Shown one piece after another: positions 55,434-58,806 of a stretch of DNA of 64,000 nucleotides. The notes below the pieces were generated by a model. That model did no database searches, was not told the origin of the DNA, and saw only the letters and a list, made by a program, of their open reading frames with translations. The translations under genes were made by a program, and so were the position numbers. The stretch's first letter is position 1, and each line of letters begins with the position of its first letter. This stretch comes from a virus (taxonomy: Duplodnaviria > Heunggongvirae > Uroviricota > Caudoviricetes): IMG/VR virus record IMGVR_UViG_2687453522_000001; one strand, given 5' to 3'.

Positions 55434-56347
55434 CCAGAATCACTGAAGAGCGTATATCAGAGATTATTTCCCGTATCGAAATGTATGGTCACGGTGCTGG
55501 ATATACGGCAGATGAAGTATTGGCACTTGCCCAAATGGCTTTGGCGGCTTGCAAAGATGATAAAAAAATGAAGCTTATCGACTTGTTAGTGAAGGAGCTG
55601 CCTAAGTGCGGCGGGTGGCCTGATGGAATGAGTTATTGTTACCTACCCAGTGTCAATTTAATGGCACCATGCGCGACTTTTGCTTTTGGCTCAGACCACA
55701 AAAAAGACACTTTCTTTGGGCGCAATTTTTGTTGTGAGATTGAGCTTCCAATTGGTGACCTTGATAGCGATGAATACCAGTCAGTTGTCACTCGCGAACA
55801 ATACGAATCAGCTCTCATAGCGTCGCAGAAAGTCGAGTTCAATGGTGATGAACTTGAAAGTAAGACTTACAGGTTGGATTTTGGGCAATGGCTGGAACAG
55901 CAACGCGGGAAAATCGATGTGGACTGTGGTTGTGTGTCCACTGAAACATTCATGCACTGGCTGCGGGTAGCTTACGAGGCTGGCAACTATCCGGATATTC
56001 CGGATAGTTCGGTGCCAGGGCCAGGAAAGGGCGTCACCGGTGAACGTATCCGCATTAAACCGCATGTTTATCGCGAACTGGTTAACCGTCTCCACGATAC
56101 AGCGATCAAGTGTGCTGGCACCCAGCAATTACGAGAAAGAATTAGCCGTGTTTTGGGCGACGTTATTACACCAGATCATCATAAACAAGCCGAGAAAAGT
56201 GGCCTGGAAAGGTGTCACCTTGAGGCGGCATTAAACATTAAGCCGGGGCATACGCTTGGCATTATTGATGCACTATTGGTTCATAAGATGGCCAGGGCTT
56301 TATTGCCGCTGGTGGATGCTGGCGATACAAGCGAGGGTGAAGTATGA
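55415..56347 (+). CDS. hypothetical protein
   Basis: 310-aa ORF. Confidence 0.5.
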   Translation: MAQKEMTRITEERISEIISRIEMYGHGAGYTADEVLALAQMALAACKDDKKMKLIDLLVKELPKCGGWPDGMSYCYLPSVNLMAPCATFAFGSDHKKDTFFGRNFCCEIELPIGDLDSDEYQSVVTREQYESALIASQKVEFNGDELESKTYRLDFGQWLEQQRGKIDVDCGCVSTETFMHWLRVAYEAGNYPDIPDSSVPGPGKGVTGERIRIKPHVYRELVNRLHDTAIKCAGTQQLRERISRVLGDVITPDHHKQAEKSGLERCHLEAALNIKPGHTLGIIDALLVHKMARALLPLVDAGDTSEGEV

Positions 56348-56706
56348 GAGTTGCAGATCACATCAAACACCTTGAAAGAATTATCGAAAACGGTGAACTC
56401 TTAAGAGATCAGATGAGACGCACGGCAGAAGTCAGAGAGGCGATAATCCGCAGTCAGGCTGGTAAATTAAAGCAATTATCAGAGATTAACGCGCTATACA
56501 AGAACAGACGTAACCGGGCGGCGCTGCGGCTTCAGAAAGCACGTAATGAAATTAAATTGGTGGAGGCAAAACTGAAAAAACAGATTCAGCGTTACGATCA
56601 GCAAGATGCTTTTTATGCCGCCATCAAGGCGGCTGCTAATGAAATAGGCATCTGGAAGTTGCTGGTGGAGAAAGCAAAGACGAAGTTAAATGCCAACGAA
56701 AGCTGA
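56344..56706 (+). CDS. small coiled-coil protein
   Basis: 120 aa, Lys/Glu/Arg-rich helical; last gene of the long plus-strand operon. Confidence 0.45.
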   Translation: MRVADHIKHLERIIENGELLRDQMRRTAEVREAIIRSQAGKLKQLSEINALYKNRRNRAALRLQKARNEIKLVEAKLKKQIQRYDQQDAFYAAIKAAANEIGIWKLLVEKAKTKLNANES

Positions 56707-56780
56707 ACTACAGGTACCCACCAGCACATACAGAAAATGATTGTTTCCACATCAAGGAGATTTTAATGTTTCACTGAACA

Positions 56781-56918
56781 TTAAGTAAGCCAGTGCATAA
56801 TTCCATTTTTTACTGACCTTAAAAGCAAAATCAAAACGATGATGAGGATGATCGCCAGAATCTGGCTAATAACAGGCGCATCTAAAAATGCACTCAGGAA
56901 CTGAAAAAAAGCAGTCAT
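56781..56918 (-). CDS. 45-aa hydrophobic peptide (candidate small membrane toxin or holin-like protein)
   Basis: MTAFFQFLSAFLDAPVISQILAIILIIVLILLRSVKNGIMHWLT; AAGGA SD 8-12 nt upstream on the minus strand; absent from the ORF track. Confidence 0.4.
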   Translation of the reverse strand: MTAFFQFLSAFLDAPVISQILAIILIIVLILLLRSVKNGIMHWLT

Positions 56919-57367
56919 TAAGGTGGTTCCTTGTCAAATGTAAAGGAGCACTTGCTCACGTTGACGTAGAAACCCAACCCCTATATAGTTGGATTCGGTG
57001 AAAGAAAGTCGTTAACGTGAGCTTACGGCACATGTTTTCGGAACAACATCAGGGAACGGCTAATTCCTTGATGCGGATGGGGTCTGTAATGCAGACCCTA
57101 TCTATTAACGTCATGATTGCATCTCAAATTTTCTCCTTATCTTCATTAATCAAAATTCATTTCATTTGTGAAACATCACAATATTTAGAAAATGGCCCTC
57201 TTGCAAGTGCATAACTTTGTGGATAAATCAGGAAGAAAAAAGTTGATTCTGCGCACGGCAAGGCAGATAAGCTGTGCACAAAAATCAATGGGAAAAGAAA
57301 AAAAATTAAAAGTTACTTTGCTGGTTAAATAATAGTCGTTACGCAATTGTTCTGGATGGGATTTGAT

Positions 57368-57619
57368 ATGCACGATTGGAATATTGCAGCTAAAAGTCAG
57401 GAAGAACGGGATAAGGTTAACGTTGATCTGGCTGCCAGCGGTGTGGCGTACAAAGAGCGATTGAACATACCTGTCATAGCTGAACAGGTAGCCCGCGAGC
57501 AACCAGAGAATCTGCGCACCTATTTCATGGAACGGTTACGGCACTATCGGCAGTTAAGCCTCCAGTTGCCAAAAGGGAGCGATCCGGTGTATCAGAACGA
57601 GGATGCACCAAAAAAATAA
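57368..57619 (+). CDS. small protein upstream of humD
   Basis: Start set at the [10 protein letters not shown] Met; weak RBS. Confidence 0.4.
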
Positions 57620-57704
57620 CGGCAAGATGGGGGAGAAATGTGATTAGCCCCCAGCGTGGCGCGCCTACAAACCCCGCTTTCACAAACTATGCCTTTTCAA
57701 TGTA

Positions 57705-57724
57705 TACTGTATGAATAAACAGTA
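57705..57724 (+). promoter_or_regulatory. LexA (SOS) box upstream of humD
   Basis: TACTGTATGAATAAACAGTA fits the CTGT-N8-ACAG consensus, 19 nt before the humD start. Confidence 0.6.
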
Positions 57725-57742
57725 TCATTGAGGTAAAACGCT

Positions 57743-58132
57743 ATGGGCTTCCCTTCTCCTGCGGCGGATTATGTTGAAAGCCGAATTTCTCTTGATCAGC
57801 AGATAATTAGACATCCTTCAGCGACCTACTTCATGCGGGCAGCTGATAGCCATCACCGTGAGGGAATATTGCAGGGTGCTTTGCTGGTGGTTGATTCCTC
57901 GCTTACTCCGGTTGATGGTTCTCTGCTTGTGTGCGCTATGGAGGGTGAATATCGCATAAAGAGATACAGGAAGTATCCGCGCCAGCACCTGGAGGATTTA
58001 AGCACCGGGAAGAAAGAGGCGTTACCAGTAGATGACGATGGATACACGGGCAGTAATGCTGTTTTTGGTGTGATCACTCATGTCATCAATGATGCCCGAA
58101 GTGGGGAATTTGATGATTGTCCGGTTATTTAA
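57743..58132 (+). CDS. humD: UmuD'-like protein
   Basis: 129 aa; S24-peptidase-like C-terminal domain without the LexA-type N-terminal arm. Confidence 0.85.
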   Translation: MGFPSPAADYVESRISLDQQIIRHPSATYFMRAADSHHREGILQGALLVVDSSLTPVDGSLLVCAMEGEYRIKRYRKYPRQHLEDLSTGKKEALPVDDDGYTGSNAVFGVITHVINDARSGEFDDCPVI

Positions 58133-58204
58133 GCTGCAAAGTGCTGGTGCTTTATGCCTGTGAAGTTTATAATTGTGTACACATAACGAGTACACGAGGT
58201 GTTT

Positions 58205-58426
58205 ATGCAATCCATTAACTTCCGTACCGCGCGTGGCAACCTTTCTGAAGTGCTCAACAATGTTGAAGCCGGGGAAGAGGTTGAAATCACCCGCAGAGGC
58301 CGTGAGCCAGCAGTAATTGTCAGCAAGGCTACTTTCGAAGCCTACAAAAAAGCGGCGCTGGATGCTGAATTTGCATCCCTGTTTGACACCCTGGACTCCA
58401 CCAACAAGGAACTGGTTAACCGATAA
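58205..58426 (+). CDS. phd: Phd antitoxin
   Basis: 73 aa [39 protein letters not shown]...; stop overlaps the doc start (TAATG). Confidence 0.9.
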
Positions 58427-58806
58427 TGAGGCATATATCACCGGAAGAACTTATTGCGCTTCATGATGCGAATATAAGCCGCTACGGCGGCCTGCCGGGA
58501 ATGTCTGATCCGGGTAGGGCAGAGGCCATTATCGGGAGAGTTCAGGCCAGAGTTGCCTACGAAGAGATCACCGACCTTTTCGAAGTCTCCGCCACCTACC
58601 TGGTGGCTACAGCGAGAGGGCATATATTCAATGATGCCAATAAGCGTACCGCGCTAAACAGTGCGCTGCTATTTCTACGCCGTAACGGGGTGCAGGTATT
58701 TGATTCACCTGAACTGGCAGACCTTACTGTAGGCGCTGCGACTGGCGAGATATCTGTATCTTCTGTCGCCGACACGTTACGTAGATTGTATGGTTCTGCG
58801 GAGTAG
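58426..58806 (+). CDS. doc: Doc toxin (Fic-fold kinase)
   Basis: 126 aa [25 protein letters not shown]... with Fic-like [11 protein letters not shown] motif. Confidence 0.9.

Follow-up and report, generated by a model that had tools for sequence, protein, structure and literature searches.

A small membrane peptide and a divergent structured RNA in P1-family phage-plasmids: a possible orphan type I toxin-antitoxin-like cassette

The stretch of DNA analysed here (the window: 64,000 nucleotides of the virus record IMGVR_UViG_2687453522_000001, to which all coordinates refer) comes from a P1-family phage-plasmid. We examined a cassette in which an open reading frame (ORF) for a 45-aa hydrophobic peptide on the minus strand lies next to a promoter and a putative structured RNA on the plus strand, and which may constitute a type I toxin-antitoxin-like pair. 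Over the 1.5 kb that surrounds the ORF, phages P1, JL22 and vB_EcoM-813R1 are 98-100% identical to the window, as are some 100 IncY-type plasmids from Escherichia, Salmonella and Shigella; adding 29211 to a window coordinate gives the coordinate in P1 (AF234172). Three lineages, namely P1-type, P7-type and a divergent one, were compared throughout. The features of the cassette are as follows.

56715..57256, both strands: cassette common to all three lineages, ~540 bp, as set by the lineage breakpoints
56781..56918 (stop codon included), minus strand: ORF, ATG to TAA, 45 aa, MTAFFQFLSAFLDAPVISQILAIILIIVLILLLRSVKNGIMHWLT
56932..56927, minus strand: Shine-Dalgarno (SD) sequence AAGGAA, 8 nt 5' of the ATG
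56961..56989, plus strand: sigma-70 promoter TTGACG-17-TATAGT (-35 at 56961..56966, -10 at 56984..56989), 10/12 consensus matches
56996..57108, plus strand: putative ~110-nt non-coding RNA, candidate antitoxin, with both ends inferred
56919..57174, minus strand: putative ~255-nt 5' leader of the ORF mRNA, placed from promoter position and folds
57109..57145: conserved stretch past the hairpins, 89% identity, with an SD-like site and mini-ORF start codons on the minus strand
57178..57206, minus strand: nrdA-like sigma-70 promoter facing the ORF, -35 TTGCAA (57206..57201), 17-nt spacer, -10 TATTGT (57183..57178)
57206..57226, minus strand: two DnaA boxes, TTATCCACA (57226..57218, perfect consensus) and TTATGCACT (57214..57206)

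A first-pass annotation, made from the letters alone, had placed a 45-aa hydrophobic minus-strand gene between 56707 and 57000, and the ORF is indeed found there; the peptide it wrote out has 44 residues, one Leu of 'LILLLRS' having been dropped. The SD sequence that it described is there, and the single transmembrane (TM) helix with a short tail is predicted as well. In the divergent lineage the SD sequence is GAGGA, at a distance from the ATG equal to that in the window. The maximum Kyte-Doolittle score over 19 residues is 3.08 for the window allele and 2.59 for the divergent allele, and an AlphaFold2 model (predicted local distance difference test score 88) places a helix over residues 2-12, a break at D13-A14 before P15 and a long helix from 15 to 44, with a basic C-terminal tail (R34, K37). 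The peptide is predicted to be a single-pass membrane protein, and with fewer than 60 aa, a hydrophobic composition and a predicted TM helix it has the general make-up of a type I toxin. The earlier description of the gene as unannotated is right for P1 and P7 as curated, whose records omit the ORF, but not for RefSeq plasmids: there the Prokaryotic Genome Annotation Pipeline predicts it with the same boundaries, as hypothetical protein WP_000123562.1. The databases thus already contain an ORF that the reference annotation lacks. In the searchable literature we found no paper naming the peptide or its accession.

A tblastn search of plasmids returned three allele classes: one identical to the window (~100 records), a P7-type class with two aa changes (~97) and a divergent class of 58-60% identity (~30), whose allele, MIVFFQFLSAFLNAPVLSQVLAIVFIVVLIWFFKSVINRGVRWLI, is again exactly 45 aa long with start and stop aligned. 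Conservation of the frame in relatives, whose lack the first-pass annotation had named as evidence against the gene, is therefore present: 45 codons are kept in all three lineages and the ORF is unbroken in 58 of 59 independent loci (plasmids and IMG/VR). When the P1-type lineage is set against the divergent one, nucleotide identity over the ORF is 78% and aa identity ~60%, with no indels, as compared to 66% and three indels for its 3' flank, 61% and one indel for the SD and spacer, and 83% for the genuine gene hot. The aa replacements are conservative (I/V, L/F, R/K). When the observed substitution spectrum was scattered at random over the ORF in a neutral simulation, an open frame together with a BLOSUM score equal to or above that observed arose with P = 0.026. 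Taken as sequence evidence, conservation appears to give the ORF moderate support beyond chance, and overall we consider it likely that the ORF is a translated gene.

The peptide belongs to no known family. Pfam, NCBIfam and PADLOC gave no meaningful match to it, and PHROG 1184, a family of unknown function, reached no better than E = 0.056. A word-indexed search of 5.8 billion proteins and an exhaustive HMMER search over 1.84 billion representatives recovered only two alleles and truncated or fused forms, a peptide-pattern scan of 185,579 species-representative genomes gave no match, and a scan of IMG/VR yielded 54 loci, with the same three alleles throughout. By these searches the peptide is an orphan whose family does not extend beyond P1-like elements.

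The curated P1 and P7 records place three plus-strand genes over the same DNA.

56888..57001, plus strand: upfM
57017..57214, plus strand: upfN
57192..57332, plus strand: upfO

The 45-aa ORF is the only frame of the interval that has its full length in all three lineages. In the divergent lineage upfM ends after 12 codons, upfN after 9 (by a 1-nt indel) and upfO after 34, and the upfM and upfN frames are lost there although the DNA is 89-98% conserved; upfM and upfN are probably not protein-coding genes. That the curated annotation is right, with upfM and upfN as the real genes and the minus-strand ORF as their shadow, can appeal to their presence in both phage records and to the match of upfM to PHROG 31823, which presumably holds the same P1-like annotations. 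But loss of these frames within well conserved DNA fits a constraint on RNA or DNA rather than on coding, and we regard this explanation as very improbable. Single-gene knockouts of upfM, upfN and upfO are entered as viable in the results of PMC9024508 as tabulated in PMC10695390, and in what these knockout and CRISPR interference (CRISPRi) papers list, the three genes are non-essential, with upfM outside the CRISPRi set. Deletion of upfM takes out the ORF start and the RNA promoter together, and deletion of upfN takes out most of the RNA together with the nrdA-like promoter, so these knockouts are uninformative about the cassette.

Conservation in the locus is highest outside the ORF, at 56955..57145, which contains the plus-strand promoter and the putative RNA. 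This promoter, which the curated P1 record predicts as PupfN, lies upstream of the ORF start codon and is oriented away from the ORF. The first-pass annotation had seen a promoter on this strand at about 56960, and there is a real one, although it reads TTGACG-17-TATAGT and not TTGACG-N15-TATATA. Between the P1-type and divergent lineages the promoter is 98% and the RNA body (~110 nt) 89% identical. After an unpaired 5' tail the plus-strand RNA would fold into three hairpins (57009-57041, 57047-57073 and 57075-57103), the third of which is rich in GC; the UAUCUAUU that comes after it weakly resembles a terminator tail, on the plus strand only. The fold of 56994..57112 has a minimum free energy of -43.8 kcal/mol (z = -5.05, 0 of 200 shuffles as good) on the plus strand versus -32.3 kcal/mol (z = -3.1) on the minus strand, a difference explained by seven G.U pairs that are valid only on the plus strand and become C.A mismatches on the other. 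RNA substitutions lie in loops (e.g., GGCU to UGUG in the hairpin-2 loop), and the changes at paired sites comprise one compensatory U-A to C-G change in hairpin 3 and two one-sided ones (G.U to A-U and A-U to G.U). No plus-strand ORF is conserved over the RNA block in the three-lineage comparison, and an Rfam search at E <= 10 returned chance-level matches only for the locus.

Some further observations concern this region. The plus-strand promoter lies within a 13-nt inverted repeat, GCTCACGTTGACG / CGTTAACGTGAGC (12/13; window 56954..57022), and an inner CCAAC/GTTGG repeat surrounds its -10. The 13-nt repeat could be an operator for a DNA-binding protein as well as a hairpin of the minus-strand leader. 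A search for the hairpin-2 DNA pattern in metagenomes and genomes gave nine loci, all of them chance palindromes without further homology. We also rejected the idea that the 'P1upfM' promoter of the curated annotation makes an antisense RNA over the full length of the ORF: its -10, CATAAT (56796..56801), lies within the last codons of the ORF, and the divergent lineage does not conserve it.

The promoter facing the ORF was already marked as 'nrdA-like' in the 1993 record M95666. The two DnaA boxes stand directly upstream of its TTGCAA -35, and the stretch 57188..57243, which includes both boxes and the -35, is identical at 53 of 56 positions to the ypaB-nrdA intergenic DNA of E. coli K-12; as read from the DNA, this is the arrangement and homology expected of an nrdA-type promoter. 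The homology stops just past the -35, and the -10 TATTGT is P1-specific (TACTGT in the divergent lineage). The DnaA boxes and both promoter hexamers are kept in all three lineages. The overlapping upfO (57188..57332 region, plus strand) is a homolog of E. coli YpaB (b4605) and adjoins these 56 bp, which are 95% identical to ypaB-nrdA; the nrdA-like region is thus a captured chromosomal fragment. The P7 copy of upfO is nearer to YpaB than the P1 copy, and the divergent lineage cuts the protein to 34 aa.

If it starts at the nrdA-like promoter, the leader of the ORF mRNA would be the full complement of the plus-strand RNA over 56996-57108, that is from -78 to -190 relative to the ATG. Variation in the locus peaks over the first ~30 nt of this leader (40% identity, with a 19-nt insertion in the divergent lineage). 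A consensus scan found no terminator-like site from the nrdA-like promoter to the ORF start codon, and hairpin 3 has no U-run after it on the minus strand. Predicted folds give the leader a long hairpin, GCUCACGUUAACG...CGUCAACGUGAGC (57022..56954, minus strand), and the 15-nt unpaired 5' tail of the plus-strand RNA is complementary to an internal loop of this hairpin; the fold of the whole mRNA is unremarkable (z = -1.4). The antisense transcript suggested in the first-pass annotation would accordingly not be antisense to the coding sequence, and would be antisense only to the long 5' leader, if the leader is transcribed. In the 57100..57140 region of the minus strand the leader also carries a conserved, strong SD-like UAAGGAG (57136..57130). 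After it come a mini-ORF, which reads MQS* in P1 and is a bare start-stop (M*) in the divergent lineage, and a 21-codon ORF, MTLIDRVCITDPIRIKELAVP, which on a reading of the sequence is open in the divergent lineage with six replacements. These mini-ORFs could represent a mok-like leader ORF or a decoy or standby site.

The promoter, the leader or RNA, and the ORF are bounded as one unit by the breakpoints of two lineages: homology to the divergent lineage starts ~65 bp past the ORF stop codon, where pmgV is replaced, and close homology to P7 stops just past the DnaA boxes. The ORF and the RNA block co-occur at ~1:1 (the greater part of the ORF is present in 227 plasmid records, that of the RNA block in 228), and the full cassette is present in 215 of 5,426 complete E. 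coli genomes (~4%), always on plasmids. In the divergent lineage pmgT/U/V are replaced by the type I restriction-modification gene hsdM (loci L006 and L008; 1636..3135) or by other hypothetical genes or cargo (L007 and L009). The cassette borders a hotspot of cargo exchange ('region 8' in PMC9603915).

Natural variants with a broken or altered ORF numbered five: two frameshifts and three insertion sequence (IS)-type fusions.

Locus L010: frameshift at K34
Allele P0001: frameshift at K37
Allele P0002: IS-type fusion after residue 31
Locus L077 (NZ_AP026785.1): IS1 insertion at the equivalent of ~56803-56810 that swaps the last six residues and keeps 45 aa
Allele P0003: second, independent IS1 insertion, in the divergent allele

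All five change the ORF from codon 32 on, 3' of most of the TM helix, and none of the five lies within the RNA block. Such a pattern is what would be expected if loss of the RNA alone were costly, the sample being small (n = 5). IS1 has entered the 3' end of the ORF at least twice independently, once per major allele; in both cases the C-terminal residues become ...VMTPTY and the native 3' untranslated region is detached.

The account that we favour, if only tentatively, is that the cassette is an orphan type I toxin-antitoxin-like pair, laid out like ldr/rdl without being homologous to it. The minus strand would encode the 45-aa single-pass membrane peptide, its mRNA starting at the captured nrdA promoter with the two DnaA boxes, while on the plus strand the strong, near-invariant sigma-70 promoter would make the ~110-nt three-hairpin non-coding RNA. 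The perfect complement of this RNA would lie midway along the leader, from 78 to 190 nt before the start codon, and pairing there would block translation of the peptide mRNA or lead to its decay, as happens in hok/sok and ldr/rdl. Were the RNA lost or outrun, through loss of the plasmid or changed DnaA control, the peptide would enter the inner membrane and growth would stop. We infer both transcription starts, the 3' end of the RNA, translation, toxicity and the regulatory interaction. A likeness to type I toxins had been proposed in the first-pass annotation and is supported in part: the only cross-lineage frame of the interval is always accompanied by a putative structured RNA headed by a 98% conserved promoter; the geometry differs from the one it had proposed.

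Among known systems ldr/rdl offers the closest layout, with a small hydrophobic peptide on one strand and a divergent small RNA (sRNA) gene that is antisense to the 5' leader of the toxin and not to its coding region. The sRNA starts 49 nt upstream of the toxin start codon in K-12 ldrD/rdlD and would start ~78 nt upstream here, and an 'AP(V/I)' motif stands at the start of the TM helix in both peptides. Here, however, the peptide has 45 aa instead of 35, the RNA has ~110 nt and three hairpins instead of ~65 nt, and the locus is phage- or plasmid-borne and single-copy, whereas ldr lies in chromosomal long direct repeats. Homology to Ldr/Rdl, prompted by the motif 'AAPVIAG', was rejected: blastp against LdrA-C gave E >= 0.045 (in a three-sequence database) and hhalign a probability of 7.2%, with no Pfam match at E <= 10, no Rfam match and no DNA similarity beyond 9-mers. 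Like hok/sok (R1 parB, with srnB and pndA), the cassette would have a plasmid-borne membrane peptide whose leader is targeted by a short cis-antisense RNA from a strong promoter, and its expected role would be post-segregational killing; unlike hok/sok, it has no Hok_Gef Pfam domain, no Rfam match to Sok or hok mRNA and no demonstrable mok-like coupled frame. In Pfam the peptide matched none of the Ldr, Hok and Fst models.

Divergent toxin and sRNA genes with long structured toxin leaders are also found in tisB/istR-1, dinQ/agrB, zorO/orzO and shoB/ohsC. Transcription of the tisB and dinQ toxins is under LexA; here the DnaA boxes taken from nrdA would, as far as the DNA can tell, be a comparable wiring to a host stress regulator. 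In the tisB-type loci, though, the sRNA does not overlap the toxin gene and acts by short trans-complementary pairing, whereas here the RNA would be fully cis-complementary, and the cassette has no sequence similarity to any of them. With phd/doc, the type II addiction module 1.3 kb away, the cassette shares the P1 replicon and presumably the purpose of stabilising the prophage-plasmid. Yet phd/doc is an experimentally proven protein-protein system with a kinase toxin, and the cassette is putatively RNA-controlled and membrane-targeted.

Several observations weigh against the type I toxin-antitoxin-like account. P1 already has phd/doc only 1.3 kb off, and the 1993 study of addiction genes from which record M95666 stems reportedly ascribed plasmid addiction to phd/doc alone. 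The cassette shows no similarity to a known toxin family or antitoxin RNA in Pfam, NCBIfam, PADLOC or Rfam. On the RNA side, the consensus scan flagged no terminator for the plus-strand RNA, and covariation over the three hairpins is not significant (73 of 500 shuffles as good, with three lineages only). As read from the DNA, the antisense overlap hinges wholly on use of the nrdA-like promoter, and a pairing of the start codon with leader positions -195..-197, predicted in both lineages, was discarded because it was no better than in shuffled controls. As to the ORF itself, its 31 substitutions show no preference among codon positions (11/8/12), and of the codons that changed, 18 did so non-synonymously and 8 synonymously. 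Selection on the exact ORF sequence therefore looks weak, and the open frame could be luck (P ~0.03-0.1); in the neutral simulation start, stop and open frame were kept with P = 0.095.

These last points are the ones expected if the ORF is untranslated, with only the RNA or DNA conserved (as structured RNA, promoter or nrdA-like region) and the frame open by chance in an AT-rich, T-rich stretch. The comparison of just three lineages, the fact that the non-coding block is more conserved than the ORF, and the exhaustive search that found no relatives outside P1-like elements point in the same direction. On the other hand, chance does not readily explain why ORF identity is 0.78 versus 0.66 and 0.61 in the flanks, with no indels in the ORF versus four in the flanks, why SD and spacing are kept, why the replacements preserve hydrophobicity and the basic tail, why the N-terminal third is the best conserved, with two of its three changes synonymous, or why all other frames contain stops. 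We rate an untranslated ORF as rather unlikely.

A different question is whether a translated peptide would be a toxin. Many enterobacterial membrane proteins of 30-50 aa are regulators and not toxins, and the ORF may encode a real small membrane protein of that or another non-toxic kind (an accessory factor acting on a host membrane protein, or one contributing to exclusion or defence), with the RNA as an independent sRNA or as the 5' leader of a downstream plus-strand gene. The conservation and membrane character of the ORF are equally consistent with this, and so is a C-terminal tail that accepts IS1-derived residues. The location of the cassette at the edge of a cargo hotspot, near restriction-modification genes in some lineages (PMC9603915), points the same way. 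However, the RNA block keeps company with the ORF even though what follows downstream on the plus strand varies, being hot in P1 but IS903 and other ORFs in P7; a tight divergent layout with the RNA more conserved than the ORF is a hallmark of type I systems, and PADLOC found no match. A non-toxic function is a live alternative that we hold to be unlikely.

The genes around the cassette bear on a third possibility, and are given here from the curated P1 record.

56344..56706, plus strand: pmgV
57369..57619, plus strand: hot, a homolog of DNA polymerase III theta
57743..58132, plus strand: humD
58199..58806, plus strand: phd/doc, type II addiction module

The interval that the first-pass annotation had described as a gene-poor 1 kb is ~660 bp, because hot occupies 57369..57619. 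The LexA-regulated lxr, which lies on the minus strand between hot and humD in P1, is missing from the window (57620..57742 versus P1 86837..87409), and the P1 match to the window is split in two around a ~630-bp P1-specific segment. A holin-like function had also been suggested for the peptide, and its size, single TM helix and charged C-terminal tail do superficially resemble those of small holins and pinholins. But a holin, antiholin or other lysis-timing protein would hardly be expected here: neither an Lpa late-promoter box nor a C1 operator faces the ORF, the nearest box, LPhot (57310), drives hot on the other strand, and none of the curated neighbours (pmgV, hot, humD and phd/doc) is a lysis gene. 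The P1 lysis genes (lydA/B, lyz, lydC-E) are located elsewhere in the genome. No holin family was matched in Pfam or PHROGs, and the overlapping upfM knockouts are listed without a plaque defect (PMC9024508, in the tabulation of PMC10695390). We consider a lysis function highly improbable, and the lack of an Lpa box or C1 operator facing the ORF fits expression in the lysogen.

Within the type I toxin-antitoxin-like account, a more far-reaching and decidedly doubtful version is that the cassette is a second addiction or stress module of P1, in which a hijacked nrdA promoter ties the toxin to DnaA and replication status and a cis-antisense RNA restrains it. We found neither a P1 transcriptome nor a report of a type I toxin-antitoxin system in P1 in the searchable literature. 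If this version were true, maintenance of the prophage-plasmid, or an abortive response, would be tied to the replication cycle of the host, and the peptide would found a new type I toxin family without relatives outside P1-like elements.

P1 is among the most-studied phages and a standard genetic tool; P1-like phage-plasmids are found in ~4% of complete E. coli genomes, and some of them carry resistance genes, e.g. blaCTX-M-55 (PMC9603915). Should the peptide and the RNA be a functional pair, phd/doc would have an RNA-controlled counterpart in P1 for maintenance or stress, a peptide gene on the minus strand and a gene for an sRNA would take the place of upfM and upfN in the annotation, and the short list of narrowly distributed type I toxin families would gain an orphan with an unusual DnaA-box promoter. 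Should the peptide be non-toxic, a model phage would still have gained a small membrane protein and a structured RNA, both of them conserved.

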